Shown here: positions 8,247 to 27,965 of the stretch, in pieces | Numbering within the stretch: position 1 is the first letter of the stretch | Layout: each line of letters opens with the position of its first letter | NCBI GenBank assembly: GCA_045612185.1 | Contig: JAZKYO010000030.1 | Coordinates: 18,506 to 82,505, forward strand | DNA length: 64,000 bases | Origin: Eubacteriales bacterium | GTDB taxonomy: Bacteria > Bacillota > Clostridia > Oscillospirales > CAG-272 | Direction of reading: 5' to 3' | The notes under the pieces: generated by a model | Told to the model about the DNA's origin: nothing | What the model saw: the letters and a program-made list of their open reading frames with translations, nothing else | Database searches by the model: none | Made by a program: the position numbers and the translations under genes

Positions 8247-10304
8247 TTACGCCTCCTGGGTCTTTCTGTATTCTTCTACTATCTTTGCCGCAATGTTTCC
8301 GGGAACAACCTCGTATCCCGTAACGTTAAAGTCAAAGGAACCGCGTCCTTGTGTCATAGCGCGAAGCACGATAGGATACTCTGCAAGCTCTGCCTTAGGA
8401 GCGATAGCGTTAATGGTTGTGTATCCCACCATTTCGGCTGTATCCATACCCATAACGCTTCCACGGCGCTTATTAAGGTCTCCCATAATATCGCCCACAA
8501 GGTCATCGGGAATGGTTATCGTAAGGTCGCCCACAGGCTCGAGAAGCACGGGAGCAGCCTGCTTCAAGCACTCTTTATACGCAAGGTTAGCCGCAAGCTT
8601 GAAGGAGATTTCGTTAGAGTCAACGTCGTGATAAGATCCGTCGTAAAGGTCAGCCGCAAGGTGAATTACGGGGAATCCCGCAACGCCCTTTGCCATAGCC
8701 TCCTGAAGGCCCTTTTCTACTGCCGGGAAGTAGTTCTTGGGAACTGCTCCGCCGACAACCGACTCTGTGAACGTAAGTCCCTCAGCCTCACCGGGAGAGA
8801 ACGTAATCTTAACGTGACCGTACTGACCGCTTCCGCCCGACTGCTTCTTATGCTTACCTTCAACCTGAACCTTCTTTGTTATCTTTTCACGGTAAGCCAG
8901 TCTGGGCTCGCTAAGGTTTACAGTTACACCAAAGCGTGCTTTAAGCTTAGATACAAGGCACGCAAGGTGCATATCACCAAGGCCCGAAATAAGCATCTGC
9001 TTTGTTTCTGCGTTGTTTTCATATCCGATTGTAAGGTCCTCTTCAAGCAGCTTTGCGATACCCTGAGAAATCTTGCCCTCGTCGCCCTTCGCCGCCGGCG
9101 TCATCGCCTGGGTATAGTAGGGCTTGGGATAACGGATAGGAAGGTATGCTCTTGTTCCACCGAGCGAGAGTGTATCGTTTGTATCTGTATCAACAAGCTT
9201 TGCAACCATACCGATATCACCGCAAGCAAGCTCGTCTACCTCAACCTGTGTCTTGCCCTTAACTGTGTATATATGTGAGAACTTCTCGGCAACTCCGCTA
9301 CGGCTGTTCTTAAGCACCATATCGCGTTTGAGAGTACCGCTCATAACCTTGAAGAAAGACATTTTTCCTACGAACTGGTCGGCAACTGTCTTGAATACGA
9401 ATACCGAGGCGTCTCCCTCAACTTCGATGGGAAGAAGTGTACCGTCAGCAAGCTTTTCGTTCTTCTTTGCCGTAAAGCGCGGGAAGGACTCGGAGATAGC
9501 GTCAAGCATTGCGATAACGCCCCATACATTTGTTGCCGAACCGCAATAAACGGGAGTGATAGTACCGTCGATGATACCCTGGTGAAGAGCCTCAACAGCC
9601 TCCTCCTTAGTAATCTCCTCACCGTTGAAGTACTTTTCCATAAGCGCGTCGCTTGTACCCGCAAGGGCCTCGTTAAGCGCTTCCTTATACTGAGCCACAA
9701 CTTCCTCAAAGCGAGCTTCCATCGGGATTTCCCATCGCTTACCGCAGGAGTCGTACTTATACGCCTTCATTGCTACAAGGTCAAGCATTGTAACGTCTTT
9801 ACCGTATTCTACGGGTACGAAAACGGGACAAACCGTTCTTCCGAACTTATAGTCAAGCTCTTTGAATACGCGGTCAAAATTAGCCTCGTTATCGTCGCAT
9901 TTATTTACAAAGAAAACCTTGGGAACGCCGTATGCGGTCGCGCTGTTCCAAGCAAGCTCCGTACCAACCTCAACGCCTGCCTTGGCGTCAACTGTGATAA
10001 CCGCGCTTCCCGCAACTCTGAGCGCCTGATTAGCCTCTCCCACAAAATCAAGGTAACCGGGAGTATCTATAATATTTATCTTGATGTTTTTCCACTCAAC
10101 AGGAGCTATCGATGCCGAAAGCGTAAAGCCTTTTTTAATTTCTTCCGCGTCATAGTCGCAAACTGTATTTCCGTCAGCAACCTTACCGAGTCTGTCGGAG
10201 CCTCCCGTAATATAAATCAAAGCCTCTGCAAGCGACGTTTTTCCGCTTCCGCCATGTCCGAGCAGCGCTAAATTTCTGATTGATTTTGTATCAAACTTTG
10301 CCAT
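8247..10304 (-). CDS. EF-G family translational GTPase, EF-G2-like paralog
   Basis: G1 is 'GHGGSGKTSL', G3 is 'IDTPGYLDF' and G4 is 'NKCD'. The length (685 aa) and C-terminal domains IV/V are EF-G-like. It stands alone with its own promoter and terminator, and is not in an rpsL-rpsG-fusA-tuf context. Confidence 0.8.
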   Translation of the reverse strand: MAKFDTKSIRNLALLGHGGSGKTSLAEALIYITGGSDRLGKVADGNTVCDYDAEEIKKGFTLSASIAPVEWKNIKINIIDTPGYLDFVGEANQALRVAGSAVITVDAKAGVEVGTELAWNSATAYGVPKVFFVNKCDDNEANFDRVFKELDYKFGRTVCPVFVPVEYGKDVTMLDLVAMKAYKYDSCGKRWEIPMEARFEEVVAQYKEALNEALAGTSDALMEKYFNGEEITKEEAVEALHQGIIDGTITPVYCGSATNVWGVIAMLDAISESFPRFTAKKNEKLADGTLLPIEVEGDASVFVFKTVADQFVGKMSFFKVMSGTLKRDMVLKNSRSGVAEKFSHIYTVKGKTQVEVDELACGDIGMVAKLVDTDTNDTLSLGGTRAYLPIRYPKPYYTQAMTPAAKGDEGKISQGIAKLLEEDLTIGYENNAETKQMLISGLGDMHLACLVSKLKARFGVTVNLSEPRLAYREKITKKVQVEGKHKKQSGGSGQYGHVKITFSPGEAEGLTFTESVVGGAVPKNYFPAVEKGLQEAMAKGVAGFPVIHLAADLYDGSYHDVDSNEISFKLAANLAYKECLKQAAPVLLEPVGDLTITIPDDLVGDIMGDLNKRRGSVMGMDTAEMVGYTTINAIAPKAELAEYPIVLRAMTQGRGSFDFNVTGYEVVPGNIAAKIVEEYRKTQEA

Positions 10305-10593: not shown

Positions 10594-12834
10594 TTATCTT
10601 TCATCGAAAAAGCTTATAAGATTATACTTTTGACCGTTAAGCTCCTTCATATATTCGGTAAGTTCTGTATACTCCTCACCACGGTTTGACATAATGCCTT
10701 TATTGGCGTTACGGTTTGAGGGGTCCGCGCTTAGGTTATCTGGGTCATTATCCCAATACTGAAACCAATCGAAACCTACGCATCCTTTACATTCAAGAAG
10801 CGAGAGCGCATAGTTCTGATAGAATCTTCCGCGGTCTGCCTGAGTTCTAACAGTCCAGCCCGCGCCCGACACGTTTGTCATTCGGTTATCCTTTTCCCAC
10901 GTATCCAGTCCCTTTGCGTACCACTCGGTAACCGCGAAGGGGCGACCTGACCACTTTTGAAGATTTTCCACTACGCTTGCCTTGGCATCCCACGCACCGT
11001 AATAGTTAAGCGAGATAATGTCGCAATAATATCCGGCAACGCGCACTATATATTCGTCAAGATAACAGCCCGGAGTAAATCGGCTTCCGAAATATTGGTG
11101 CATAGGAACATATTTATCAAGGCACAGCTTTGCCACGCTAAAATATTTATCGTATACCATGGCACGGTATTCCAAACGTAACTCGTCGGTTATATCAGCA
11201 AGCGACACGTTGGCTTTACCTGTTTTCATGTACATAAAAGTCCAGGCGGTGGCATAGGTATGAGCCCACTTAGGGTCGCTCGGGTCTTTTTTAAGCGAAA
11301 AATCCAAGGTGTTAATCTCGGACGGCAACTCGTTATCCGAGAACCATCCAAAAACTTCGGATGCGCCCGCATAGCCATTAGTTTTTTCCGCCGTACTTTT
11401 CATTGCTGATGTCACAAATGCGGGATCAAACACAGGCATAACGTTTTCGCTGTATTTGGTATCTCCCGGTGTTGGCAATCTGATTCCCACCGAGGTTGCG
11501 TACGTACTCATAATATTCCAGCGCTCGGTTTGTGAAAGAGGATTATCCGCGTTTATTAGATTTGCGATATCCGACCAGTTACCCGCAGAATTGAATCCAA
11601 GCGCACGCAATCGCTCCGTTGCCGCTTGCGCCCAGTTTTCTATATTTTCGTATTTGGAAAGAGTAAGAGATTTCTGATTTTTGGAATCCCCGTGCACAAT
11701 ACCAACGCAAGCCGTGCGGTAAAACGGATATCCAAGTGGGTCTATCACCCACCAACGTTCACCTATTTTTTTAGTATAGAAATATCCCGTCGCCTCCTGC
11801 TTTAAAGCTTCGTTCACAAGTCCTCCGTAGACGTCATACTCGGCTGTCTCGGAAAAGTCGGGAACATAGCCGTCAAGGGTGGACACAAGTCTTGTCGGAT
11901 GAGACGTATATCTGGTATTATAGCCATCGGTTCCTGCGGCAAGACAGGCGTCGGTAGTAACGCTATACTCATTTTCACGCTTAACCACGGTTTGGGCATC
12001 TGAGTCTCCACCGTTTTTAATGGATTCCCATCTTCCAAGCCAATCCGAAACGTTCTGCATAGCTAACGTCCAAGGATTTTCTCCATCATACGCGATATCG
12101 GTGGTATAAGCATAGTCACCGCAAGTGACATTTAAAAAGGCGCTTCTTCCCTCTTGGCGTTCTTTGGAGCTGAAATTCAGACGCTTCATTGAGCTGACAT
12201 CCCCCTCAAGAACAAAAGAAATCTCCGAATCTTTAAAACTGAGACATTTCAGCACGTAATCGGTAACGTCTATATTTACAAGTCCTTTTCCGCTAACGAA
12301 AACAGACGTCACAAATTCATCTTTTTCGGGGCGGGTTGAGTAGGTTACTGTTTCCTCCTTCCAAGCACTAGGGTCACATCCGTACACAAGCACCTCGGTA
12401 GAATACCCCGGCGTTTCAAGCACAAAGCAATCAAGTGTTAAGGTTACCGAAATAACCCCTTCTTGCGGTAGGCTTGAAATGTCAAATTTAAGCAAGGGCG
12501 TTCTATAATAGCTTTCATATTTTTGGGGTTCGTCAGCGTTAAGCGCTTTAAAGTCCATCATTTCGGAAAATCCGAAATTCTTATTTGCGGAAACTCCTCC
12601 CTCAACGTAGGTGTCCTCAAGAACGGGAACAGTAAACGTATCGGTTTGAGTAATTCCCACAAGGGAATCAAGTCCGCTGATTATTATCTGTTCATCAAGT
12701 GCGCTATTCCATTCATCGGAAACAGCGGTTTGCGGTGCGGCGGCTGTTTCTCCCCTCTCGGTTGTATCTATTGGGGCGCCGCACCCCGAAAGCAATAATA
12801 ATGTTGCCATAAAAAGGAATATAAATTTTTTCAC
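10594..12834 (-). CDS. lipoprotein: one DNRLRE/CBM96-like module plus a conserved putative clan GH-A glycoside hydrolase domain (paralog 1 of 4)
   Basis: The GTG start is preceded by GGAGAG. The lipobox is 'LLLSGC'. The module is 'EDTYVEGGVSANKNFG...YYRTPLLKFDISSL...VYGCDPSAWKEETVTYSTRP'. The C-terminal domain carries 'GWFSDNELP' and 'FAVTEWYAKG', ending in '...FDWFQYWDNDP...'. Confidence 0.6.
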   Translation of the reverse strand: MKKFIFLFMATLLLLSGCGAPIDTTERGETAAAPQTAVSDEWNSALDEQIIISGLDSLVGITQTDTFTVPVLEDTYVEGGVSANKNFGFSEMMDFKALNADEPQKYESYYRTPLLKFDISSLPQEGVISVTLTLDCFVLETPGYSTEVLVYGCDPSAWKEETVTYSTRPEKDEFVTSVFVSGKGLVNIDVTDYVLKCLSFKDSEISFVLEGDVSSMKRLNFSSKERQEGRSAFLNVTCGDYAYTTDIAYDGENPWTLAMQNVSDWLGRWESIKNGGDSDAQTVVKRENEYSVTTDACLAAGTDGYNTRYTSHPTRLVSTLDGYVPDFSETAEYDVYGGLVNEALKQEATGYFYTKKIGERWWVIDPLGYPFYRTACVGIVHGDSKNQKSLTLSKYENIENWAQAATERLRALGFNSAGNWSDIANLINADNPLSQTERWNIMSTYATSVGIRLPTPGDTKYSENVMPVFDPAFVTSAMKSTAEKTNGYAGASEVFGWFSDNELPSEINTLDFSLKKDPSDPKWAHTYATAWTFMYMKTGKANVSLADITDELRLEYRAMVYDKYFSVAKLCLDKYVPMHQYFGSRFTPGCYLDEYIVRVAGYYCDIISLNYYGAWDAKASVVENLQKWSGRPFAVTEWYAKGLDTWEKDNRMTNVSGAGWTVRTQADRGRFYQNYALSLLECKGCVGFDWFQYWDNDPDNLSADPSNRNANKGIMSNRGEEYTELTEYMKELNGQKYNLISFFDER

Positions 12835-12866
12835 AAATATTGCTCTCCTCTACAAGTATATTCATT

Positions 12867-12895
12867 ATTATAGCAGATTTTTATTTTAAAATCAA
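12867..12895 (-). promoter_or_regulatory. promoter of GH-like paralog 1
   Basis: Minus strand reads TTGATT-17-TATAAT. Confidence 0.5.
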
Positions 12896-12942
12896 TATCC
12901 TAAAGGCAATTTAACTTCTTTTGCAACGCAACCGCATAAAGG

Positions 12943-12970
12943 AATCCCCACGACAAAAGCCGTGGGGATT
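12943..12970 (-). terminator. hairpin after GH-like paralog 2
   Basis: aatccccacg-acaaaagc-cgtggggatt. The U-tract is weak. Confidence 0.5.
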
Positions 12971-12974
12971 AAAA

Positions 12975-15875
12975 TTATCGCGCGTCGAAATACTTTATAA
13001 GATTGTACTTTTGGTTATTAAGCTCTTCCATATACTTGGTAAGTTCTGTATATTCATCTCCGCTGTTGGAGAGAATACCCTTATTGGCGTTACGGTTTGA
13101 AAGGTCGGTGGTAAGGTCCTCGGGGTCGTTATCCCAAAGCTTGAACCAGTCAAAGCCAACGCATCCCTTGCACTCAAGCAACTGAAGCGCATAGTTCTGA
13201 TAGAATCTTCCGCGGTCTGCCTGAGTTCTTACCGTCCAGCCCGCACCAGACTTATTTGTCATACGGTTATCGGCTTCCCAAACATCCATTCCCTTTGCGT
13301 ACCACTCGGTAATAACAAAAGGTTTTCCTGCCCACTTCTGAATGTTGGCAATAACGTTAGGCTCAGCCTCCCACACACCGTAATAGTTAAGCGTAATAAG
13401 GTCACACCAATATCCCGCAACGCGGAGAACATACTCATCCTTATAGCATCCCGCCAAGAAGCGACATCCCATATACTGGTGATTTGGGGCATACTTATCA
13501 AGAGCCTTGCAGGTAAGTGAGAACAGTCTGTCGTAAACCATTGCGCGATACTCTTTTCTGAGTTCGTCAGTCAAATCCGCTGCAGACACAGAAGTTTTAC
13601 CCGTTTTCATATACATAAACGTCCATGCGGTAGCATAAGAATAGATAAATCTCATGTCAGTCGGGTCAAAAGCAAGAGTATTATCAAGCATATTGGTTTC
13701 ATCCGGAAGCTCGTTGTCACTCATCCATCCATATATATCCGAAGAATCGGCGTATTTGCTTACCGTAGAATTAACCTTTGTATCAACGTATTTGGCAAAA
13801 TCGGGATCAAACACGGGAAGCGCGTTACCTACAAGATCGGTGCTTCCGCTTTGGCTGATGTTGAGCCCCATTGTGGAAGCATAAGAGCCAACAAGTCCGA
13901 TTATCTGTGTTTGAGCAAGCGGCTTTTCAGATTTGATAAGAGTATCAATTGTAGACCATCCGCCCGTTGAGTTAAATCCAATCTCGTGGAGGCGGTCGGT
14001 TATTGCCTGAGCCCAGTTTGCGGCATCACCGTATTTAGCCAACGTTCTGGCTTTTTGGGCACTGTTACCCATTGATACGTTAACGATGGCAGTTCTGAAG
14101 AAAGGATATCCAAGTGGGTCGATTGTCCACCATCTGTCACCAATCTTCTTAGTATAAAAGAATCCTGTTGCCTCCTGCTTCATGGACTCATCCATAAAGC
14201 CACCGTACACGTCGTACTTCTTTGTCTCAGAGGTGTTGGCGGTATAGCCCTTAAGAGTGTCTATATTTCTTGTTTTATACTGTGAATACTTGGTTTCCGC
14301 ACCATTTGTACCGCCTGAACGGGTTGCGTCAACTGTAAGGGTATATTCTGCGGGATCCTTAACTAATACTTTGGCATCAGGATCTCCGCCCTTCTTAATT
14401 TCTTCCCATCTGTCAAACCACTCACTAACAACGTCCATAGCTACCTGCCAAGGATTTTCTCCCTTGTAGTGAACGTAGGTGGAAAATGCCAGATCACCGT
14501 TTGAAATATTAAGCACGGGACCGCCCTTATCACTTTCATTAGACGAGAATTTAAGGCGGCGAATAGAATCGGCATCACCTTCAAGGTAGAAGGCAATCTC
14601 CTTTTCTCCAAACTCGCGACACATATTAACGTAGTCAGTAACATCAACGTAAACGTTGCCAGTACTCTTTACAACAACCGTATTTATAAGTTCTTCCCTA
14701 TCGGGGATGGAATTATACGTTACGCTACTTTCTTGCCACTGCGCGGGATTACATCCGTACACGTGGACCGTGGTGGGAATTGACGTATTTTCCATACTGA
14801 TACAGTTAAGCACGAGAGCCGCATAGCCCGTTGATTCGGGAATATTTGATATATCAAATTTGATAAGCGAGACTCTGTAATAGTTATTTATTGTAGAAGT
14901 GGCAGCCTTGAAATCAATAAGCTCAGCTCCGCCAAAGTTGGTGTCTGCCGAGGTTCCCGCCTCGACGTAAGTATCCTCTTTAGCTTTAAGCGTCAGCATT
15001 TCGCCCTTATCCTGACCAAGTATAACGTCAAGACCGTTCTTTGAAAGGTCGGGATCTCCAAGCTCTGTCTTTCCGCTGTAAGTCTGTTCGTCAACCTTTG
15101 TTCCGTAGTAAACGCTAAGCTTGGGGATATTTTCTCCGCTTTCCTTAGACGCAAATTTTAAGCGAAGCGGTGTTACGGGGGTCGCCTCCTTTAAATAGAG
15201 GGCTATTTCGGTCTGACCGTTTGCAAGCGCCTTTCTTACATAGTCGGTAATCGCAAAGCTTGTGGTAATCTTTTGAGTACTGATGGCGTTTTGCGAGGTA
15301 ATGAGGTCAAAAGACATCGGTTGGTTATTGAAGGTAACTTCCTCACCTTTCCACTCAGTTTCACATCCGTACACCTCAACTGCGGCAAGCTCGGGATTTC
15401 CCGCGTCATTCTGTCTCCACGTAAGGGTAAGGTCAAGATCTATGCAAGTGAAATCGTTATCGCCCACAAGCGAAGAAATATCAAACTTAAGATATCCGTA
15501 TCTTGTAAGGCTGTTTTTATTTGACTTCAAATCAATAAGAACGTCGGTAGAAAAGCTTTTTTTAGACTGATCTCCCGAGTTGTCTTTATTAAGTACGTAG
15601 GTATCCTCCTTAACGTCAATTGAATAGTCAAAGCGATCAACCTTTACGGGTGGCTCTGTTTCGGGTGGATCTGTTTCAGGGGGATTGGTTTCAACAGGCG
15701 TTGATTCCTTTGGGTCGGTTTCCTGCTGACCATTATCGTCAGGGGTTGTATCCTGCGCGTCGGTGACATCGGGAGCATCCGTAACTTCGGGAGTTGAAGT
15801 TATGTCGTCCACCGCAGGGGCACAGCCTGCAAGCTGCATAAGAAGCGCAAGTAAGATGGCAACGATTTTTTTCAT
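12975..15875 (-). CDS. lipoprotein: two DNRLRE/CBM96-like modules plus putative clan GH-A glycoside hydrolase domain (paralog 2 of 4)
   Basis: The lipobox is 'QLAGC', followed by a T/P/D/E linker. The modules contain 'TRYGYLKFDISSL' and 'YYRVSLIKFDISNI'. The C-terminal domain has 'GWMSDNELP' and 'FVITEWYAKG'. Confidence 0.6.
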   Translation of the reverse strand: MKKIVAILLALLMQLAGCAPAVDDITSTPEVTDAPDVTDAQDTTPDDNGQQETDPKESTPVETNPPETDPPETEPPVKVDRFDYSIDVKEDTYVLNKDNSGDQSKKSFSTDVLIDLKSNKNSLTRYGYLKFDISSLVGDNDFTCIDLDLTLTWRQNDAGNPELAAVEVYGCETEWKGEEVTFNNQPMSFDLITSQNAISTQKITTSFAITDYVRKALANGQTEIALYLKEATPVTPLRLKFASKESGENIPKLSVYYGTKVDEQTYSGKTELGDPDLSKNGLDVILGQDKGEMLTLKAKEDTYVEAGTSADTNFGGAELIDFKAATSTINNYYRVSLIKFDISNIPESTGYAALVLNCISMENTSIPTTVHVYGCNPAQWQESSVTYNSIPDREELINTVVVKSTGNVYVDVTDYVNMCREFGEKEIAFYLEGDADSIRRLKFSSNESDKGGPVLNISNGDLAFSTYVHYKGENPWQVAMDVVSEWFDRWEEIKKGGDPDAKVLVKDPAEYTLTVDATRSGGTNGAETKYSQYKTRNIDTLKGYTANTSETKKYDVYGGFMDESMKQEATGFFYTKKIGDRWWTIDPLGYPFFRTAIVNVSMGNSAQKARTLAKYGDAANWAQAITDRLHEIGFNSTGGWSTIDTLIKSEKPLAQTQIIGLVGSYASTMGLNISQSGSTDLVGNALPVFDPDFAKYVDTKVNSTVSKYADSSDIYGWMSDNELPDETNMLDNTLAFDPTDMRFIYSYATAWTFMYMKTGKTSVSAADLTDELRKEYRAMVYDRLFSLTCKALDKYAPNHQYMGCRFLAGCYKDEYVLRVAGYWCDLITLNYYGVWEAEPNVIANIQKWAGKPFVITEWYAKGMDVWEADNRMTNKSGAGWTVRTQADRGRFYQNYALQLLECKGCVGFDWFKLWDNDPEDLTTDLSNRNANKGILSNSGDEYTELTKYMEELNNQKYNLIKYFDAR

Positions 15876-15904
15876 ATTCTTTCCTCCAAAAATATACTTG
15901 TTTA

Positions 15905-15933
15905 ATTATACCATATAATGTTCTTTTTGTCTA
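15905..15933 (-). promoter_or_regulatory. promoter of GH-like paralog 2
   Basis: Minus strand reads TAGACA-17-TATAAT, in the -10 context GGTATAATTAAA. Confidence 0.5.
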
Positions 15934-15992
15934 TACTTTTTATACATTTCTCATAATTTCATAATTTTCCGCAATTAATCCTTAAAGACTGT

Positions 15993-16021
15993 AAAAAGCC
16001 CTCGGCATGCGTGCCGAGGGC
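15993..16021 (-). terminator. terminator of GH-like paralog 3
   Basis: gccctcggca-tgcg-tgccgagggc, followed by U5 on the minus strand. Confidence 0.8.
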
Positions 16022-16026
16022 TGATA

Positions 16027-18876
16027 TTATCTTGCGTCAAAGAAGTTTATAATGTTATACTTCTGATTATTCAGTTCCTCCATAAACTTAGTAAGCTCGG
16101 TATACTCGTTACCTTGATTATCAATGATACCCTTATTGGAGTTTCTGTTGGAAAGATCGGCGTTAAGGTTATCGGGGTCATTGTCCCAGAACAAGAACCA
16201 GTCAAAACCGACGCATCCCTTGCACTCAAGGAGTGAAAGCGCGAAAGTTTGATAGAACTGTCCTCTTGCGGTCTGGTCCTTAACCGTCCAGCCCGCGCCC
16301 GATTCGTTGGTCATTCTGTTGTCCTTTTCCCAAACGTCCATTCCCTTTGCGTACCACTCGGTAACTACGAAAGGCTTACCTGCCCACTTAACCTGATTTG
16401 CAACCAGTTCAAAATCAGCGTTCCATGCGCCATAATAGTTATAAGTGATAACGTCGCACCAATAACCCGCAACGCGCATTACGTATTCGTCGGTATAACA
16501 GCCTTTAAGCATACGGCAACCCATATACTGATGATAAGGAGCGTATCTGTCAAGGGCGTTCTTAACCACCTCAAAATATCTGTCGTAAACCATCGCTCTG
16601 TACTCAAGGCAAAGCTCGTCGGTAACGTCTTCAACAGAAACGTTGGGGTTACCCGTTTTGAGATACATAAAGGTCCACGCGGCAGCGTAAGTATAAGCAA
16701 ATCTAGCGTCCGTAGTATCAAGAGAAAGTGCGCTGACAAGCATTCTCTTAGAGTCTGGAAGCTCGTTATCACTCATCCAACCGTAGACGTTGGGGTTAGT
16801 AGCATAAGCGGAAACCGCACTTTTAACAGTTTCATCTGCCATGACAGCATATTCGGGGTCAAATACGGGAATAACGTCTCCGATAAGAGTGGTATTACCG
16901 CTTTCGGAAATATCAAGTCCGTTTGCCTGACAGTATTTTTTTGCAACATACATGATATGTGTCTGTGTAATGGGGTTATTTGCCTTGATAAGATTTCCGA
17001 TAGACGACCAACCGCCCGCGGAATTGAAGCCAAGCTCGTGAAGTCTGTCGCTTGTTGCCTGTGCCCAATTTGCCGTTGTTCCGTATTTTGCTTTAACAAC
17101 AGCGTTCTGATTTGGTGAACCTGTACCAATAGTTACAACAGCTGTACGGAAGAAGGGATATCCAAGCGGGTCTATTGTCCACCATCTATCACCGATTTTC
17201 TTGGTATAGAAAAATCCTGTTGCCTCCTGCTTTATGGACTCGTCCATTAATCCGCCGTAGATATCGTATTTCTCCGTCTCAGCGGTGCTTGCGGAATAGC
17301 CATTAAGCGTGCTTACAAGACGGGTGGGATAGTTTGTGTATTTGGTATTAGCTCCCGTTGTACCGCTGGCGTTTGTTGCGCCTACGTTCAAGGGATATTC
17401 GGACATATCGGGCTGTATTTGCTCGATGTTTTCGTCTCCGCCCTGCTTAATGATTTCCCATCTGTGAAGCCACGTGGAAACTCGCTCCATCGCAACCGCC
17501 CAAGGGTTCTCTCCGACATAACTAAGCTCTGTGGTAAAGTTTTTGTCTCCTATGTTTAGCACAAGTGAGGGTGACATAGTTTTAGACTCTTTTGAGGAAA
17601 AATTAAGTCTGCGAACCGAATCGGCATCCCCCTCAAGATATAGGGAGATTTCTTTATATCCGATATTGACAAGCTTTGAAACGTAATCAGTAACGTCTAT
17701 TCTGACAGTTCCCTTGCCTTCAACCACCACCGAATTTATAAGCTCTTCCCTTTCGGGCAACGTATTATAGGTTACGCTCATTTCTTGCCAATCGTCGGGA
17801 TAACAACCGTAAACATTAATTCTTGTGGGGTGATCATAGCTTTCGATACTGGTACAGTTCAATTCCAGAAACAGCTTATCATACTCCATGTTGTTAAGCT
17901 GTGAAACATCGAACTTCAGAAGCGTTATTCTGTAATATTCATTAGGCTTAGAACCGACAGCCTTAAAGTCAAGCATATCAGAATCTCCGAAATTATCATC
18001 GGCGGTCTTTCCTGCCTGAACGTAAGCGTCTTCTTTAACGATTATTTTTGTAGAGTCGACCTTATGCACGCCAACTATCGTATCCAAGCCGTTTTGGGAA
18101 GGAATATATTCGGTTGCAGTACCTATAGATGCGCCGCTGTAAACCGAATCATCTGTCTTTGTTCCGTAGTAAACTGTAAGCGAAGGTCCTGCCTTTTCGC
18201 TTTCCTTAGACTCAAACTTGATATGAAGAGGCGTACTTGTGTTTTCCTTGATATAAAAAGCCACCTCTGTTTCACCCTTAGAAAGCGCGTATTTGATGTA
18301 AGAAGCAACCGGGAAATCAAACACTTTACCGTTACCTACCACGTCATCGCGCAAGCTGATAAGCTCGTAATGCTCGGGCTGATTATTAAAGGTAAGTGTG
18401 TTTTCACTCCACGAGTCTGTGGGCGCGCCGTAGATTTCTACGACTGCGGTAGCGGGATTTCCGGAGTCATTCTGCTTCATTTTAAGCATAAGCTTAAGGT
18501 CAACAGCAGTAAAATCGTTATCACCTACCAAACAAGAAATATCAAACTTGAGATAGGTAAATCGAATGGGGGCGGAAGCCTCAGATTTAAGCTGAAGATC
18601 TACGTCACTACCGAAATTATCGTCAACGTTCTTGTTTCCTGCCGCCTTATACACGTAGGTATCTTCTTTTACTTCGATTGTATAATCCTCACGTTTTACG
18701 GGAGGGGCAGTTTCGGGGGGATCGGTTTCGGGAGCGTCTGTAACAAGTGGAGCATCTGTATGTGTTGGCTCATCGGTTATCTCATTGTCAACGGTTGTAT
18801 CGGCAGGAGCGCCACAACCGCAAAGCAACATAATAACTACCAAAGCCACTATAAAAATTTTCCGGTTTTTCTTCAT
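16027..18876 (-). CDS. lipoprotein: two DNRLRE/CBM96-like modules plus putative clan GH-A glycoside hydrolase domain (paralog 3 of 4)
   Basis: I moved the start to the internal ATG at 18876 ('MKKNRKIF', RBS GAGAGGA). The lipobox is 'LLCGC'. Motifs are 'IRFTYLKFDISCL', 'YYRITLLKFDVSQL', 'GWMSDNELP' and 'FVVTEWYAKG'. It begins 21 nt downstream of paralog 4 with no terminator between them. Confidence 0.6.
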   Translation of the reverse strand: MKKNRKIFIVALVVIMLLCGCGAPADTTVDNEITDEPTHTDAPLVTDAPETDPPETAPPVKREDYTIEVKEDTYVYKAAGNKNVDDNFGSDVDLQLKSEASAPIRFTYLKFDISCLVGDNDFTAVDLKLMLKMKQNDSGNPATAVVEIYGAPTDSWSENTLTFNNQPEHYELISLRDDVVGNGKVFDFPVASYIKYALSKGETEVAFYIKENTSTPLHIKFESKESEKAGPSLTVYYGTKTDDSVYSGASIGTATEYIPSQNGLDTIVGVHKVDSTKIIVKEDAYVQAGKTADDNFGDSDMLDFKAVGSKPNEYYRITLLKFDVSQLNNMEYDKLFLELNCTSIESYDHPTRINVYGCYPDDWQEMSVTYNTLPEREELINSVVVEGKGTVRIDVTDYVSKLVNIGYKEISLYLEGDADSVRRLNFSSKESKTMSPSLVLNIGDKNFTTELSYVGENPWAVAMERVSTWLHRWEIIKQGGDENIEQIQPDMSEYPLNVGATNASGTTGANTKYTNYPTRLVSTLNGYSASTAETEKYDIYGGLMDESIKQEATGFFYTKKIGDRWWTIDPLGYPFFRTAVVTIGTGSPNQNAVVKAKYGTTANWAQATSDRLHELGFNSAGGWSSIGNLIKANNPITQTHIMYVAKKYCQANGLDISESGNTTLIGDVIPVFDPEYAVMADETVKSAVSAYATNPNVYGWMSDNELPDSKRMLVSALSLDTTDARFAYTYAAAWTFMYLKTGNPNVSVEDVTDELCLEYRAMVYDRYFEVVKNALDRYAPYHQYMGCRMLKGCYTDEYVMRVAGYWCDVITYNYYGAWNADFELVANQVKWAGKPFVVTEWYAKGMDVWEKDNRMTNESGAGWTVKDQTARGQFYQTFALSLLECKGCVGFDWFLFWDNDPDNLNADLSNRNSNKGIIDNQGNEYTELTKFMEELNNQKYNIINFFDAR

Positions 18877-18897
18877 AATTTGTCCTCTCATAATTAA

Positions 18898-21711
18898 TTA
18901 TCTGGCATCGAAGTACTCAATAATCGTGTATTTTTGATCATTAAGTTCTTTCATATAATCTGAAAGGTCGGTATATTCTGTTCCCTCGTTGGAGTACATA
19001 CCCTTATTTGAGTCTCTGTTTGAGGGGTCTGCGCCAGCGTCTGTTGGGTCATTATCCCAATACTTGAACCAGTCAAAGCCCGCGCATCCCTTACATTCCA
19101 TAAGCATAAGCGCGTAGTTCTGGTAGTACTTTCCGCGGTCATCCTGAGTTCTTACAGTCCAGCCCGCACCCGTCTTATTGACGATAAGAGGATTCTTTTC
19201 CCAAACGTCCATTCCCTTTGCGTACCATTCGGTAACTACGAAGGGAGTATCTCCAAGCCAGTTCTGAATATTTCTGAGAAGAGTGGGATCACCTTCCCAC
19301 GCACCGTAGTAGTTAAAGGTAACAACGTCGCACCAGTAGCCCGCAACACGCATAATGTACTCGCGTTTATAGTTGTTGTTTACAAAGCGGCAACCCATAT
19401 ACATATGATTGGGGTCGTACTTTTCAAGTGCCTTTGTTACAACTTCAAAATACTTATCATAGGTCATAGCAAGATACTCGTTACGAAGCTCGTCTGTAAT
19501 ATCCATCACAGACACGTCAGCTTTGCCGGTTTTGAGATACATAAATGTCCATGCGGTGGCGTAGGTATAAACACGTTTCACATCAGTAAAGTCAAGCGCA
19601 AGCGCATGGTCAAGCATATTAAGGTTATCGGCAAGCTCATTATCACTCATCCATCCGTAAACAGAAGGATTATTTACGTAGGGCTCTACCGCTTTCTTTA
19701 TATGACTATCCGCAAAGACTGCGAATTCGGGGTCAAATGAAGGTATTACGTCATCCTTGGGAAGTCTTGATCCTCCCGAGGAAACCTTAACACCTATATG
19801 CTTACCGTACTGAGTAGCCACATTGAATATCTGTGTCTGAGAAATAGGATTGTCGATACCCGAAAGAGTAGCGATATCCGACCATCCGCCCGCGGAATTG
19901 AAGCCAAGTTCAAAGAGTCTCTCGGTCGCTGCTACGCCCCAAGCGGCTTTTGTTCCATATTTAGCAAGTGTTATCTCCTTCTGTGCCGGAGATGAACCGT
20001 AAGCCACCTGAACTACCGAAACGCGGTAGAAGGGATAGCCGAGGGGGTCAATATTCCACCAACGATCGCCTATTTTCTTGGTATAGAAATAGCCTGTTGC
20101 CTTGTATTTTTCACCGCCCATATATCCACCGTACTCATCGTAGAGCTTTGTTTCCTTGGCATTAGCCTTAAAGCCTTTAAGGGTACTCAGATTTCTTGTG
20201 GGGTACTGAGAATAAACGGTACTTGCGCCGTTAGTCTTACCTGCGGTGGTAGCGTCTACCGTGATAGAATACTCCGCGGGATCTTTCACTATAAGCTCAG
20301 CATCTGTTCTGCCGTGACTCTTGATTTCTTCCCATCTTGCAAGCCACGTATTTACAGACGTCATAGCCACGTCCCAAGGATTCTCGCCTTTATATCTAAG
20401 CTTTGTAGTGAAGTTCAACTTACCGTAGTTAATTTCAAGACGGGGAGCTTTTCCGCCGACCTTTTCGGAGGAATCAATTCTTGTTCGGTACATAGAGGAT
20501 GTTTCTCCGTCGAGATAGAAGGAAATAACGTCATCTCCGCGTTTTATTGCCTGCTTTACGTAATCAGTTACATCTATGCGTTTTTCACCAGTGCCTACGA
20601 TGGAACAGCTTGTTATAAGTTCTTCTTTTTCGCACAAAGTATTGTACGTAACAGTTCCTTCATCCCAAGCGTAAGGATCACAGCCGAACACTTTTATTAC
20701 TCTTGCTTTATTCGGCTGTTCCATTTCAAAGACATTAAAGTAAATATACACCTTTGATATATCCTCTCTATTTATAGAAGAAACATCAAATTTAAGAAGA
20801 GTAATTCGGTAAGTAGAGATAGATTTTTCTGCGGGAGCCTTATGTTCAAGAACTTCGGAGCTGCCGAAATTCTTATCCACCGATGCGCCACCCTCTACAT
20901 AGGTATCCTCCAAAACGGGAACCATACCGACTTCAACAGTACTCCAACCAAGGAGTTTATCCAAACCGTTTTGAGATATTTCCGGTTCCGGAGTTTTTGT
21001 TTTACCGTTATAGATTGCTGTATCTACCTTTGTTCCGTAATATACGGAAAGTTTGGGGGCGTTCTCCCCCGCTTCTTTGGAAGCCCATCTTGTATGAAGC
21101 GCGACGCCAGCCGAAGCCTCTTTAAGATAAAAAGCTATTTCGCTTTGTCCGTTGGCAAGCGCTTTTCTTACATAATCTGTTATCGGGAAAGAATTTATCA
21201 CCTTATCCGCAGTAATATCGTTTTTAACGGTAATTACATCGAATATCTCAGGCTGTGTATTGAAGGTAAGATCAGACTCGGTCCACTCGGTACCTGCGCC
21301 ATACACCTCGATAGTCGCAAAGGGGGTTGCCGCGTCCTGCTGTCTTACAGTAAGCATAAGATCGAGCTCGATAGACGTAAAATCGTTATCTCCTTTAAGT
21401 GAGGATATGTCGAACTTAAGATATCCATAACGTGTAAGACTGTTACCGTTGGACTTTGTGTGTATCTCGACATCCGAGCCGTAATTGGTATCTTTAAGAT
21501 CGGTGTTGCCGTTTTTGTTCATAACGTATGAATCCTCCTTTACGGGGATAGTGTGGTCAAATCTCTCTACCGGTACGGGAGGCTCTGTTTCGGCCTGAGG
21601 TGTTTCGGGAGCATCCGTCACAACGGGAACCGTGGTATCGTCTCCCACAACCGAATTGCACGAGCTGAGCAACATAAGAGACGCCAGCAAAATCGCAAAA
21701 AATTTTTTCAT
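18898..21711 (-). CDS. lipoprotein: two DNRLRE/CBM96-like modules plus putative clan GH-A glycoside hydrolase domain (paralog 4 of 4)
   Basis: I moved the start to the ATG at 21711 ('MKKFFAIL', RBS AAAGGAAG). The lipobox is 'LLSSC'. Motifs are 'TRYGYLKFDISSL', 'TYRITLLKFDVSSI', 'GWMSDNELA' and 'FVVTEWYAKG'. Confidence 0.6.
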   Translation of the reverse strand: MKKFFAILLASLMLLSSCNSVVGDDTTVPVVTDAPETPQAETEPPVPVERFDHTIPVKEDSYVMNKNGNTDLKDTNYGSDVEIHTKSNGNSLTRYGYLKFDISSLKGDNDFTSIELDLMLTVRQQDAATPFATIEVYGAGTEWTESDLTFNTQPEIFDVITVKNDITADKVINSFPITDYVRKALANGQSEIAFYLKEASAGVALHTRWASKEAGENAPKLSVYYGTKVDTAIYNGKTKTPEPEISQNGLDKLLGWSTVEVGMVPVLEDTYVEGGASVDKNFGSSEVLEHKAPAEKSISTYRITLLKFDVSSINREDISKVYIYFNVFEMEQPNKARVIKVFGCDPYAWDEGTVTYNTLCEKEELITSCSIVGTGEKRIDVTDYVKQAIKRGDDVISFYLDGETSSMYRTRIDSSEKVGGKAPRLEINYGKLNFTTKLRYKGENPWDVAMTSVNTWLARWEEIKSHGRTDAELIVKDPAEYSITVDATTAGKTNGASTVYSQYPTRNLSTLKGFKANAKETKLYDEYGGYMGGEKYKATGYFYTKKIGDRWWNIDPLGYPFYRVSVVQVAYGSSPAQKEITLAKYGTKAAWGVAATERLFELGFNSAGGWSDIATLSGIDNPISQTQIFNVATQYGKHIGVKVSSGGSRLPKDDVIPSFDPEFAVFADSHIKKAVEPYVNNPSVYGWMSDNELADNLNMLDHALALDFTDVKRVYTYATAWTFMYLKTGKADVSVMDITDELRNEYLAMTYDKYFEVVTKALEKYDPNHMYMGCRFVNNNYKREYIMRVAGYWCDVVTFNYYGAWEGDPTLLRNIQNWLGDTPFVVTEWYAKGMDVWEKNPLIVNKTGAGWTVRTQDDRGKYYQNYALMLMECKGCAGFDWFKYWDNDPTDAGADPSNRDSNKGMYSNEGTEYTDLSDYMKELNDQKYTIIEYFDAR

Positions 21712-21755
21712 AATTTTCTTCCTTTCATTATAAATCATTATAAATATACATTTTA

Positions 21756-21784
21756 ATTATACCATAATTAAACATGCTTTTCAA
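21756..21784 (-). promoter_or_regulatory. promoter of GH-like paralogs 4 and 3
   Basis: Minus strand reads TTGAAA-17-TATAAT, with the same GGTATAATTAAA context as paralog 2. Confidence 0.55.
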
Positions 21785-24101: not shown

Positions 24102-25118
24102 TTACTTAGCAACAGACATAAGGATCTCGTCGATATATGCCTCGAACTGACCCTGATCGTCAAAGAATCTTACAGAAGAATCTGTCTTGCCTGCAACAGA
24201 TGCGCCAAGCTTGCCTGTGCCTTCAGCGGTCTTACCGTCAAAGCCAACAAACTCAACCTTTACATCGCCCTTAGCAGGATCAACTACAACTGTAACCTTA
24301 TCCCAACCCTTATCGGAGAAGGCTGCAACTGCCTTATTGTTACCAACTGTGTAGATATCACCTACACCGTCAACTGTAAGAAGCTTATACTCTGTACCAC
24401 CGATTGTCCATGTAAGGAGATCAAGTGTGCCGGTAAGAGGATACTCATCAAACTTAGCCATAAAGGAAATTGTGAATGTCTTTGCAGCAAACGCATTGTT
24501 CTTATCTGTAAGCTCGAAGTAACCTGCGGGGTTGATTCCGCTATCACCTGTGGGAACGTTTGCATAGTTGTTGGTCTCTTCACCGTCAACGAAAGAAACA
24601 ACCTGAGTTGCGAATGCGCCCTTGTATGTAATGTCATTTGCAAACTTGTCCGCTACGTTCTTGATGTCAGCAACATCATCGAAAGACGTATAGAAGAAGG
24701 GGAACTCGATTGCGGAGTAATCAGCAACCTTTGTACCGTTAGCGTCCTCTACATACTCATCAGCACATACTGTGCAGAACTGCTTTGTGTAAGCGCCGTC
24801 TGTGCTCTTAAGAGGAGAGTACATATGAGCAGCGGGAATAACTTCGTCCCAAGTAAGGTTACAAGAACGGCAAACCATTGTGTACTTACCGTCTGTTGTA
24901 CAACTAGCCTCTACGCGGCTACCGGGAACTTCTCTGGTACGAGTGTGCTTGCACTCCTCTTCAGGCTCAGTATCTGTGCCCTGTGTGTCGGGGGCCTGTG
25001 TATCGGGAGCATCTGTAACATCAGGTGCCGTTGTGTCTGTTCCGCCACCGCAAGCTGCGAAAGCACAAACTACCATCACAAGTGCGATAACAAGCGCCAT
25101 AATCTTTGTGAATTTCAT
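24102..25118 (-). CDS. surface lipoprotein, His/Cys-module family (2 modules) plus beta-sandwich-like C-terminal domain (paralog 1 of 6)
   Basis: I moved the start to the ATG at 25118 ('MKFTKIMAL', RBS GGAGGAAG). The lipobox is 'AFAAC', followed by a T/D/P linker. The modules are 'CKHTRTREVPGSRVEASCTTDGKYTMVCRSCN' and 'HMYSPLKSTDGAYTKQFCTVCA'. The tail is 'AYIDEILMSVAK'. Confidence 0.55.
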   Translation of the reverse strand: MKFTKIMALVIALVMVVCAFAACGGGTDTTAPDVTDAPDTQAPDTQGTDTEPEEECKHTRTREVPGSRVEASCTTDGKYTMVCRSCNLTWDEVIPAAHMYSPLKSTDGAYTKQFCTVCADEYVEDANGTKVADYSAIEFPFFYTSFDDVADIKNVADKFANDITYKGAFATQVVSFVDGEETNNYANVPTGDSGINPAGYFELTDKNNAFAAKTFTISFMAKFDEYPLTGTLDLLTWTIGGTEYKLLTVDGVGDIYTVGNNKAVAAFSDKGWDKVTVVVDPAKGDVKVEFVGFDGKTAEGTGKLGASVAGKTDSSVRFFDDQGQFEAYIDEILMSVAK

Positions 25119-25206
25119 GATTCTTCCTCCAAAAATTAAAGAAATAATTTTGCATCTCCCAACCAAGCATAAATGTAGCTTTTTTGGGGTCAACACTTAT
25201 GCTAAT

Positions 25207-25235
25207 AATATATCACAAAAAGTTTTTTTTGTCAA
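25207..25235 (-). promoter_or_regulatory. promoter of His/Cys lipoprotein paralog 1
   Basis: Minus strand reads TTGACA-17-TATATT. Confidence 0.55.
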
Positions 25236-25333
25236 TAGTTTATACGAAAAGACATTTGCTTTTTTTGAAAGCTTATTTAATCTGTACAAAACCAAACAGC
25301 AAATACTATGCACTTTGACCATAATATCAAACG

Positions 25334-25363
25334 CAAAAAGGCGGCACCGTTACCGATGCCGCC
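25334..25363 (-). terminator. terminator of lipoprotein paralog 2
   Basis: ggcggca-ccgttaccga-tgccgcc, followed by U5. Confidence 0.7.
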
Positions 25364-25374
25364 AAATATGTTAT

Positions 25375-26472
25375 TTACTTAATCTCAACAAGCTTGAAAT
25401 TGTCGAAGTAAGGCATGGAAACACCGTTGGATTTAACGTCGAAGAAACGAAGTTCAAAGTTTCCATTGTACTTGGCATCGGAATGATTGGTGATATCCTT
25501 GGAACCAATACTTACACCGTCAATATAAACCGAAACCTTCCATGTGGAAGTATCTATGATACCGACACAGTTGTACCACTTTCCAATTTCGGCTTTTATG
25601 CTGTTGGCATCGTTATGACCTGCATCTTGAGTGGAAAGCACTCCGTCAGCCTCGTAATACTTAACGATCCAAGCATATGTAGAACGACCTCCAACAAACG
25701 AGAAGATAGACTCACCTCTGTGAGTAAGTCCCTGTGTAGTAAGCTTGAAATCAAAGCTTACAAGGAGCTTGGTATTAGTGGGAATAACCTCGGGGGCGTA
25801 CTTAAGCCAAAGCGCACCGTTAGTCTGCAATGCGCTGCCCTCATACTTCATGCCTTCAGGCTTGGTAACTGCAAAAGCGGGATAGTTTGCGAACTCAGCC
25901 TCGCTGTCAAAGTCAAGCTTGAGAATGGGGGCCTGCTCACCAAACTTAGCGGTCTGACCGCACTTTGTACAAGTGCTTGCCACGCCTTCCTTGGAAACGG
26001 AGATCTTAGTAAGGTCGTAAGCGTGAGCTGCCTTAACAACAGTCTCTTCCTTGCTTCCGCAACGGTAGCACTCGCTCTTTGCCAAGCCATCGGCTGTACA
26101 CGTTGCCTCTGTTATAACGGAATCAACAAAAAGGTGACCGTACTTTTCAACAAGGAGCTTTCCGCAAGTTGCGCAAACAGAATCCTCTGTGCAAGTAGCA
26201 TCCTTAGCATCGTGCATTGCGAAAGGAACGGGCATTTCGCTTCCCTCTTCAACTTCACCGCACTCACACTTCATAACCTTTTTACCGAGAGACGTACAAG
26301 TAGGTTCAAGCGTAACCGCCTCAACGTACGCATGAACATGGGTGGAAGGATTGTCATCAACTACGGGAGGATTGTCTCCGGCAGGAGCTGTGGTCTCGTT
26401 ACCGCTAGGGCCGCATGCAACTATTGCCAATGCCATAACAAGCACAAGAGCAAACAATAAAAACTTTTTCAT
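25375..26472 (-). CDS. surface lipoprotein, His/Cys-module family (4 modules) plus beta-sandwich-like C-terminal domain (paralog 2 of 6)
   Basis: The RBS is AAGGAG and the lipobox is 'AIVAC'. The modules are 'HVHAYVEAVTLEPTCTSLGKKVMKCECG', 'HDAKDATCTEDSVCATCG', 'HLFVDSVITEATCTADGLAKSECYRCG' and 'HAYDLTKISVSKEGVASTCTKCG'. The tail is 'YFDNFKLVEIK'. Confidence 0.55.
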   Translation of the reverse strand: MKKFLLFALVLVMALAIVACGPSGNETTAPAGDNPPVVDDNPSTHVHAYVEAVTLEPTCTSLGKKVMKCECGEVEEGSEMPVPFAMHDAKDATCTEDSVCATCGKLLVEKYGHLFVDSVITEATCTADGLAKSECYRCGSKEETVVKAAHAYDLTKISVSKEGVASTCTKCGQTAKFGEQAPILKLDFDSEAEFANYPAFAVTKPEGMKYEGSALQTNGALWLKYAPEVIPTNTKLLVSFDFKLTTQGLTHRGESIFSFVGGRSTYAWIVKYYEADGVLSTQDAGHNDANSIKAEIGKWYNCVGIIDTSTWKVSVYIDGVSIGSKDITNHSDAKYNGNFELRFFDVKSNGVSMPYFDNFKLVEIK

Positions 26473-26518
26473 AACAAATCTCCTTTAATGTATTTGCGTT
26501 AGCTATTTGTTTAAAAAC

Positions 26519-26547
26519 ATTTTAACATATCGAGGCAATTTTGTCAA
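26519..26547 (-). promoter_or_regulatory. promoter of His/Cys lipoprotein paralog 2
   Basis: Minus strand reads TTGACA-17-TAAAAT. Confidence 0.6.
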
Positions 26548-26595
26548 GTGTTTTTAAATCGAATTTTGACACCTTTATCTGTTTTGACTAAGGGG

Positions 26596-26625
26596 ACAAA
26601 AAACCGCCCCGCTAAAGCGAGGCGG
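26596..26625 (-). terminator. terminator of lipoprotein paralog 3
   Basis: ccgccccgc-taaa-gcgaggcgg with one mismatch, followed by U7. Confidence 0.7.
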
Positions 26626-26638
26626 CAAAAATTTTAGC

Positions 26639-27769: not shown

Positions 27770-27822
27770 TGGTAATTTCTCCTTAAAAATTTTATTTTGG
27801 GAATTATATCATCCACCTCATC

Positions 27823-27851
27823 ATTTTATCACGCTAAAGTGAATTTGTCAA
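27823..27851 (-). promoter_or_regulatory. promoter of His/Cys lipoprotein paralog 3
   Basis: Minus strand reads TTGACA-17-TAAAAT. Confidence 0.6.
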
Positions 27852-27920
27852 CCCAAAAAGGGATTCCGACACAAATTTCGTCAACTAACTCCAAACTCAA
27901 ATCGATTTTTTTGTGCAATA

Positions 27921-27952: not shown

Positions 27953-27965
27953 ATAATCCAATTGA

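Follow-up and report, generated by a model that had tools for sequence, protein, structure and literature searches.

Introduction

The glycoside hydrolase family GH50 is treated as an agarase family in annotation and in the profiling of carbohydrate-active enzymes (CAZymes) in microbiomes. A 2024 paper counted about 30 characterized members, and the family is polyspecific, comprising agarases, a beta-galactosidase and beta-1,3-glucanases (PMC11079163), to which can be added two beta-D-glucuronidases of ~54 kDa from polysaccharide utilization loci (PULs) with GH88 and sulfatases (bioRxiv 10.64898/2026.05.19.726164). Our subject is a stretch of 64,000 nucleotides from an uncultured Eubacteriales bacterium (GenBank assembly GCA_045612185.1, contig JAZKYO010000030.1, forward-strand positions 18,506 to 82,505; "the window" means this whole stretch), in which four consecutive genes, designated P1 to P4, encode predicted lipoproteins that join CBM96 modules to a large catalytic domain. 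The family of that domain, GH50, is a known one; what is new is the uncharacterized clade of CBM96-fused proteins to which P1-P4 belong, massively expanded in one uncultured genus of the herbivore gut.

The closest described relative is BpGH50 of Phocaeicola/Bacteroides plebeius (Bacple_01683, PDB 5T3B), the best match of P1 in both sequence and fold. It represents a GH50 subfamily that is common in gut Bacteroidales, is reported not to cleave agarose (PMC8551122), and is a single domain of ~520 amino acids (aa) without CBM96 that sits in PULs of the SusC/D type. The agarases Aga50D of Saccharophagus degradans (PDB 4BQ2-4BQ5), PfGH50B (6XJ9) and AgWH50C (5Z6P) share the family and clan of P1, and PMC11079163 gives Glu534 of Aga50D as the proton donor (acid/base) and Glu695 as the nucleophile. 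The beta-1,3-glucanases PaBglu50A (GH50_2) and Fsa16295Glu (GH50_3) and the beta-galactosidase VadG925 have the same pair of glutamates and no CBM96, and form lineages remote from one another and from the main GH50 groups (PMC11079163). The two beta-D-glucuronidases, AXE80_10390 of Wenyingzhuangia fucanilytica and CytfeDRAFT_4604 of Saccharicrinis fermentans, are similar in size to BpGH50 (54-55 kDa), and their activity was seen on p-nitrophenyl-beta-D-glucuronide only (bioRxiv 10.64898/2026.05.19.726164). Their PULs, with GH88 and sulfatases, provide an acidic-glycan setting that resembles the GH88/GH115/CE15 surroundings of BpGH50 homologs; the two enzymes are from marine Bacteroidota and have no CBM96.

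As for CBM96 itself, one founding member, the module TM6-N4 of an alginate lyase (PDB 7VBO), binds alginate, with Lys27 and Arg36 as ligand residues, and the domain also occurs in pectate and hyaluronate lyases (PMC9971899). A second founding member, of structure 8WAB, is by its PDB title the chondroitin-sulfate-binding carbohydrate-binding module of a chondroitinase.

The Four Genes and Their Parts

The four open reading frames (ORFs) lie consecutively on the minus strand at 10594-21738 and encode proteins of 746, 966, 954 and 946 aa (P1 to P4). Their parts, in window coordinates, are as follows, the catalytic residues and lipoprotein character being predicted; module limits in P2-P4 are from hidden Markov model (HMM) matches.

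10594-12834, minus: P1 (746 aa), ORF of a lipoprotein with one CBM96 and a GH50 domain; lipobox MKKFIFLFMATLLLLSGC
12124-12648, minus: P1 CBM96 module, residues 63-237, abutting the catalytic domain (local HMM, 2e-62)
10597-12129, minus: P1 GH50 catalytic domain, residues 236-746, a (beta/alpha)8 barrel (PDB sequence search, AlphaFold2, Foldseek)
11329-11334, minus: P1 Asn501-Glu502, predicted acid/base after barrel strand 4 (codons checked)
10924-10926, minus: P1 Glu637, last residue of barrel strand 7 and predicted nucleophile (invariance and alignment with Aga50D)
10699-10701, minus: P1 Lys712, in the 'NKG' signature of the loop that follows strand 8, a candidate specificity residue
12975-15875, minus: P2 (966 aa), lipoprotein with T/P/D/E linker, two CBM96 and GH50
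15108-15629 and 14502-15005, minus: P2 distal and proximal CBM96
12978-14504, minus: P2 GH50 domain
13710-13712 and 13305-13307, minus: P2 catalytic Glu722 and Glu857
16027-18891, minus: P3 (954 aa), lipoprotein with linker, two CBM96 and GH50
18169-18693 and 17557-18054, minus: P3 CBM96 modules
16030-17556, minus: P3 GH50 domain
16762-16764 and 16357-16359, minus: P3 catalytic Glu710 and Glu845
18898-21738, minus: P4 (946 aa counted from 21738; the true start is likely the ATG at 21711), lipoprotein with linker, two CBM96 and GH50
21040-21558 and 20428-20931, minus: P4 CBM96 modules
18901-20433, minus: P4 GH50 domain
19636-19638 and 19228-19230, minus: P4 catalytic Glu701 and Glu837

The full-length proteins are 51-57% identical to each other, which excludes a chance likeness. 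A sequence-only reading of this DNA had described four consecutive minus-strand lipobox genes, with DNRLRE/CBM96-like modules ahead of a C-terminal region that carries a pair of glutamates in the manner of clan GH-A, and it held up well. Every motif it quoted is present, the three of the C-terminal region (GW[MF]SDNEL[PA], F[VA][VI]TEWYAKG and GFDWF.[YLF]WDNDP) once per protein, and the two glutamates, read as about 135 aa apart, are separated by 135, 135, 135 and 136 residues in P1 to P4.

The Catalytic Domain Is a GH50 Glycoside Hydrolase

Scans of the C-terminal ~510 residues against Pfam-A and NCBIfam gave no match, and the lack of a model in either collection explains why the domain looked unassigned and why the sequence-only reading could name no CAZy family for it. 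Searches of the PDB by sequence and by fold do place it. With phmmer, P1 matched BpGH50 (5t3b) at 8.5e-49, followed by Aga50D (4bq2) at 1.5e-21, PfGH50B (6xj9) at 9.6e-20 and AgWH50C (5z6p) at 5.1e-14, and the ranking was identical for the other two clades of paralogs in the same genome. The 5T3B entry is annotated simply as 'Glycoside Hydrolase'; its identity as BpGH50 comes from the Foldseek search and PMC8551122. An AlphaFold2 model of full-length P1, built on an alignment of 56 sequences, had a mean predicted local distance difference test score (pLDDT) of 89.9 and a predicted template modeling (pTM) score of 0.85. In Foldseek against the PDB its first match was again 5t3b (E 6e-36, TM-score 0.82 on the target, 29% identity), the top 17 matches were all GH50, and those after BpGH50 were GH50 agarases alone. 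We conclude that the C-terminal domain is a member of CAZy family GH50, clan GH-A.

The eight barrel strands of the model (residues 373-378, 416-417, 434-438, 494-498, 580-583, 607-610, 633-637 and 685-694) put Asp500-Asn501-Glu502 just after strand 4 and make Glu637 the last residue of strand 7. A clan GH-A-like barrel with its NE and E at the ends of these two strands was what the sequence-only reading had anticipated, and of the outcomes that it named as speaking against the idea, the fold found is that of an enzyme family rather than a non-enzymatic one, and the glutamates are not misaligned: the HMMER alignment pairs Glu502 with the DNE and Glu637 with the GEFH of Aga50D, whose glutamates are Glu534 and Glu695 once the chain offset is allowed for. 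All four residues (D500, N501, E502 and E637) are invariant in 56 aligned homologs, with H579, R585, N610, Y612, Q665 and R668 conserved alongside the catalytic pair, and the motifs DNE[LI] and [TS]E[WF] are kept in all 33 full-length copies of the domain in the host genome. It is likely that P1-P4 are active surface GH50 glycosidases of the CBM96-fused clade. If so, catalysis would follow the retaining double displacement of clan GH-A, in which Glu637 (P1 numbering) would attack the anomeric carbon and Glu502 would serve as acid/base.

Within GH50 the resemblance of P1-P4 is to BpGH50 rather than to the agarases. BpGH50 has catalytic motifs like theirs (FSDNE and VTEFYTKG), and both carry an NKG motif after strand 8 (DCNKGM in BpGH50) and, following strand 7, the insertion of an N-x-SGAG[WF] loop; unlike P1, BpGH50 has neither a helical N-terminal extension of ~70 aa nor an insertion of 11 residues after strand 8. 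The agarases are only 14-17% identical to P1 in structural alignment. Asn533 and Phe742 of Aga50D are conserved in P1 (as N501 and F691), but Arg752 and Glu757, which bind agarose in that enzyme, lie opposite Leu701 and Ser706 and are not conserved. The family motif of the CBM96-fused proteins is N(A/S)NKG, its lysine (Lys712 in P1) at least 90% conserved, in place of the NYN[VI]GF of the three agarase structures, which have Val or Ile opposite Lys712 and lack the SGAG loop. That the NKG motif and SGAG[WF] loop are shared with BpGH50 and absent from the three agarase structures, and that BpGH50 does not cleave agarose, argues for enzymes other than agarases.

A Clade of CBM96-Fused Proteins

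The family at large is sizeable: 2665 representatives matched the catalytic domain at E<=1e-3 and 392 at E<=1e-30. In a quick tree of 132 catalytic domains (LG+G4, midpoint root), all 48 CBM96-fused rows fell inside one clade of 64 rows, with a Shimodaira-Hasegawa-like approximate likelihood ratio (SH-aLRT) of 89 and an inner clade at 98, while BpGH50 and its Bacteroidales homologs formed a separate, fully supported clade without CBM96, outside which P1-P4 lie. The CBM96 label changed 12 times on the tree, compared with 39 in shuffles. Public data agree, in that CBM96 stands directly upstream of the domain in 83 of the 112 close homologs whose domain is complete, in 38 of the 114 representatives of clusters at 50% identity, and in none of 119 Bacteroidales homologs of BpGH50. 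On the evidence of this tree, the CBM96-fused proteins are a distinct GH50 clade, sister to the non-agarolytic BpGH50 group.

The identity of the modules, called DNRLRE/CBM96-like by the sequence-only reading, is confirmed. One match in P1 and two in each of P2-P4, the numbers it had given, were made by both the Pfam model of CBM96 (PF24517; 86-192 bits, cut-off 26) and the NCBIfam DNRLRE model (NF033679; 67-146 bits, cut-off 34), with E-values from 2e-24 to 8e-57 across the four proteins; the Pfam match in P1 covers residues 67-228 (E 2.3e-24). In Foldseek the CBM96 part of the P1 model matched 8wab with a TM-score of 0.88 and 7vbo with 0.77, so it shares with those modules its Pfam/NCBIfam family and its beta-sandwich fold, yet is only 19-21% identical to them. 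They also differ in setting: the 7VBO and 8WAB modules are appended to polysaccharide lyases, whereas here CBM96 is fused to a glycoside hydrolase and is kept even in copies that appear to be cytoplasmic.

In 32 of the 33 copies, among them the six that lack a signal peptide, at most 25 aa separate the module from the catalytic domain that it precedes, and CBM96 without GH50 occurs in only two ORFs of 300 aa or more in the genome. As judged from this domain order, CBM96 plus GH50 is a distinct, recurrent two-domain unit, and the distal second CBM96 and other N-terminal additions (LamG-like, Cys-rich) are accessory. Across the junction in the P1 model the pLDDT is 85-92, which suggests that P1 has no flexible linker there. 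One CBM96 beta-sandwich would then be rigidly attached at the N-terminus of the (beta/alpha)8 barrel, with the distal CBM96 of P2-P4 as an extra. Aga50D-type agarases also have an N-terminal beta-sandwich ahead of the barrel, though it is not recognized as CBM96.

Larger paralogs, of 1150-1370 aa, occur at C28:32747-36868, C44:10675-14790, C8:1951-9050 and C45:16059-19508 (C for contig) and carry Cys-rich (CxxC) and LamG-like modules ahead of the CBM96-GH50 unit; they resemble the zinc-stalk/lectin lipoproteins at window 24102-31451. In the copy that begins at C45:16059, CBM96 is not detectable.

Predicted Surface and Cytoplasmic Forms

Each of P1-P4 begins with a K/R-rich n-region and a hydrophobic core, followed at the end of the signal peptide by a lipobox (LSGC, LAGC, LCGC and LSSC, respectively; regular expression [LVI][ASTVI][GAS]C), that of P3 having an atypical Cys at -2. 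The NCBIfam lipoprotein-signal models matched the four proteins weakly. A linker rich in Thr, Pro, Asp and Glu (T/P/D/E), which the sequence-only reading had seen in P2-P4, was recovered there with a T/P/D/E share of 53-61%, compared with 37% in P1, whose N-terminal stalk (residues 14-49) is disordered in the AlphaFold2 model. We infer from these features that P1-P4 are anchored by lipid to the outer face of the membrane in a monoderm cell: the protein would be lipidated at the lipobox Cys, and a disordered T/P/D/E stalk, short in P1, would keep the enzyme off the membrane.

An N-terminal secretion signal, in most cases with a lipobox, is present in 27 of the 33 genomic copies; the other six lack a signal peptide, begin straight at CBM96 and are apparently cytoplasmic. 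Taken together, secreted or surface copies and cytoplasmic ones suggest extracellular depolymerization followed by intracellular trimming of imported oligosaccharides. The signal-less copies are at C47:5741-9986, C59:453-2528, C92:18652-20697, C133:20011-22041 and C4:12000-14144. Those on C133 and C4 are sisters of lipoprotein copies in their own tandem arrays, a relation that implies switches of location between surface and cytoplasm.

Copy Number and the History of the Array

The host genome (2.62 Mb in 154 contigs, 92.9% complete, 1% contamination) contains 33 full-length copies of the domain, as well as fragments, on 17 contigs, and the 33 copies amount to 29,732 codons, or ~3.4% of the genome. 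An assembly artefact or contamination behind this number was ruled out, the copies being 34-68% identical and spread over 17 contigs of an assembly with 1% contamination. Copies were found in all 14 genomes of the same genus (1-34 each) but not in any of the 27 that represent other genera in its family or order; the expansion is genus-specific.

A tree of the 33 domains resolved three clades of 13, 17 and 3 members, with P1-P4 in the first and one long-branched copy, on C131, weakly attached to the second; when four sequences from a sister species were added the first clade had 16 rows. In that species (GCA_045128735.1) a syntenic array stands beside the same elongation factor G (EF-G) paralog that adjoins P1-P4, and P4, P3 and P2 match its genes 2-4 at 69, 60 and 67% identity. 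In the tree P4 and P2 are orthologous to sister-array genes, whereas P3 groups with a paralog from its own genome, so that its best match to the sister gene G5c (60%) is not established by the tree as 1:1 orthology. P1 has no ortholog in the sister species and is a long-branch singleton, and the ortholog of the first gene of the sister array lies ~200 kb away on the window's own contig. Between P2 and its counterpart G5d, identity is 69% in the distal CBM96, 59% in the proximal CBM96 and 75% in the GH50 domain.

The sequence-only reading had seen here a tandem expansion to four copies. The four genes are indeed adjacent, but the extent of the expansion is 33 copies rather than four, and the genes are old paralogs: a recent tandem duplication of P1-P4 is ruled out by the sister-species orthologs of P2 and P4 and by the 51-57% identity among the paralogs. 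What the comparison of the two arrays does reveal is an array that gains and loses members, and GH50 genes that evolve much faster than their housekeeping neighbor, since they are 60-69% identical between the species and the EF-G paralog 94.7%. Short CBM96/GH50 remnants at C45:34602-34982 and C20:4731-5027 (e.g., '...ISFFLEGDADSVRRLNFTS...') indicate that gene death is ongoing within the family.

The Question of the Substrate

The lead that we favor for the sugar in subsite -1 is a tentative one, a beta-glucuronide or other acidic glycan such as glucuronic acid (GlcA)-capped arabinogalactan or pectic side chains. It derives from the uronic-acid context of BpGH50 and related PULs, the anionic ligands of CBM96, the GH50 glucuronidases, and the presence in the host genome of two uronate isomerase (UxaC) genes and a mannonate dehydratase (UxuA). 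The gene directly before that of BpGH50 encodes a GH88/DUF2264 protein of the GH154 type (PMC12316285), and in a PUL of the B. clarus type (L020, ENA ERZ28623194 scaffold_26) a BpGH50 homolog is accompanied by GH115, CE15, GH88, GH2, a sulfatase and a separate CBM96 protein. GH50 and CBM96 in trans in this PUL are the same pair of domains as is fused in cis in P1-P4. The target of the PUL appears to be a glycan rich in glucuronic acid; we know of no assigned substrate for a PUL of this type. It further holds an SASA esterase, SusC/D and a BACON protein; its CE15 is a glucuronoyl esterase, its GH88 gene encodes a GH88/DUF2264 protein, and its CBM96 protein, of 1008 aa, consists of two F5/8-type-C domains and CBM96.

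One can go further and, with rather less confidence, picture the CBM96-fused GH50 proteins as a functional subfamily of a new kind. The proximal CBM96 would then belong to the catalytic unit, instead of being a targeting module that can be detached, and might contribute to the form of the cleft in the way of the N-terminal sandwich of Aga50D; a beta-linked uronic acid would be accepted at subsite -1, its carboxylate bound by Lys712; and the 33 paralogs would be a PUL-independent system for a very heterogeneous acidic glycan. Glycans of this description would include GlcA-capped arabinogalactan-proteins or gums, rhamnogalacturonan side chains and microbial exopolysaccharides. Independently of this picture, the diverged paralogs as a set look like a toolkit peculiar to the genus and aimed at a single class of chemically heterogeneous glycans.

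Several points weigh against the preferred reading. No characterized member of the CBM96-fused clade was found, and the PUL evidence comes from a sister clade that is only ~30% identical. The host genome gave only a weak match to GH88, and a GH154 was not found in it. The neighbors of the 33 copies are mixed (GH32, GH113, GH28, GH78-like or rhamnosidase-like, GH2, CE4 and GH110-like), and no consistent transporter or regulator stands beside them. Since the copies of this one genome fall into three sequence clades, they probably do not all have the same specificity. GH2 glucuronidases have a carboxylate-binding Asn/Lys motif, and it is by analogy with this that Lys712 is put forward as a candidate specificity residue. 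The surface location, for its part, is predicted from the sequence patterns that mark P1-P4 as putative lipoproteins.

Gene context was also tried as a clue to the substrate and failed: relatives sit among housekeeping genes, and the other 29 copies near mixed CAZymes.

Of the alternatives, the one that survives best, and that we regard as a real possibility if short of probable, is that P1-P4 are neutral beta-glycanases or glycosidases, either beta-1,3-glucanases of the PaBglu50A and Fsa16295Glu type or beta-galactosidases/galactanases like VadG925, with plant, fungal or microbial beta-glucans or pectic and arabinogalactan galactans as targets. Such activities are documented in GH50 (PMC11079163; bioRxiv 10.64898/2026.05.19.726164), the canonical -1 sugar of the family is beta-D-galactose, and the GH28, rhamnosidase-like, GH2 and GH113 genes near some paralogs have a pectin/hemicellulose flavor; however, the characterized examples lie far apart from one another and from the main groups (PMC11079163), the known ligands of CBM96 are anionic polymers, and in the sister clade the accompanying PUL genes are for uronic-acid enzymes. 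As to the particular sugar in subsite -1, a beta-galactoside or galactan seems unlikely, and a beta-1,3-glucan somewhat more so.

It is far less probable that P1-P4 are without catalytic function and serve as surface lectins or adhesins, with a dead glycosidase for a scaffold and an expansion that reflects antigenic or adhesive diversification and not catabolism. The rapid divergence of the three array correspondences relative to the EF-G paralog (60-69% versus 94.7%) would suit such a role, as would an adjoining array of lectin-like lipoproteins and the absence of a linked transporter, but all 33 copies and all 56 aligned homologs retain the DNE motif and the nucleophile Glu, along with H579, R585, N610, Y612, Q665 and R668, and the six copies without a signal peptide cannot be surface adhesins.

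That P1-P4 are beta-agarases is the least credible of the alternatives, and agarose a most improbable substrate: GH50 membership, the agarases that make up most of the characterized GH50 enzymes, a Cohnella homolog named 'Agarase' in UniRef and the existence of gut Firmicutes with an active GH50 agarase (Faecalicatena; bioRxiv 10.1101/2020.06.09.142968) are outweighed by the inactivity on agarose of BpGH50, the closest structure (PMC8551122), by the want of a counterpart to Arg752 and Glu757 (agarose-binding in Aga50D) and of the NKG Lys and SGAG loop in the agarase structures, by the origin of named relatives in roe-deer caecum and fecal metagenome-assembled genomes rather than algal habitats, and by 33 copies in one genome, which agar could not explain.

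A genus of uncultured Clostridia from the gut of terrestrial herbivores thus devotes ~3.4% of a 2.6-Mb genome to 33 diverged GH50 genes, every one of them in the CBM96-fused clade. An expansion of this order implies an abundant and structurally varied gut substrate, the enzymes for which current CAZyme annotation mislabels as 'agarase', 'DNRLRE domain protein' or 'hypothetical'. The identity of that substrate would define a new specificity or subfamily of GH50, clarify the role of CBM96 on hydrolases and explain the niche of the genus; P1-P4 are convenient targets for expression, and P1 has the minimal architecture.

Transcription Signals and Neighboring Genes

The following features near the genes were found by consensus or pattern scans:

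21756-21784, minus: promoter-like site TTGAAA-17-TATAAT with TG, upstream of P4
15905-15933, minus: similar sigma-70-like site before P2 (consensus scan, pattern only)
12867-12895, minus: similar sigma-70-like site before P1 (consensus scan, pattern only)
15997-16022, no strand assigned: GC-rich palindromic hairpin with an 11 bp stem, after the stop of P3 and before the start of P2

The gap between P4 and P3 is only 6 nt, so the two are probably co-transcribed, and the hairpin is a possible terminator or processing site, going by its pattern.

The array is flanked by the EF-G paralog on one side and tpiA-pgk on the other. The EF-G paralog (window 8247-10304, minus strand) is a protein of 685 aa with the G1 motif GHGGSGKT. 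The first 2346 nucleotides of the window (plus strand) are the 3' end of a giant ORF of ~2985 aa (C30:11897-20851), one of the only two in the genome with CBM96 but without GH50; a Pfam scan of the 752 aa of it that fall within the window gave no match. Lipoproteins at window 24102-26472 (minus strand) bear the identical type of T/P/D/E stalk and belong to a separate array of six genes, and one of them has a weak match to Laminin_G_3 (E 1.4e-5).

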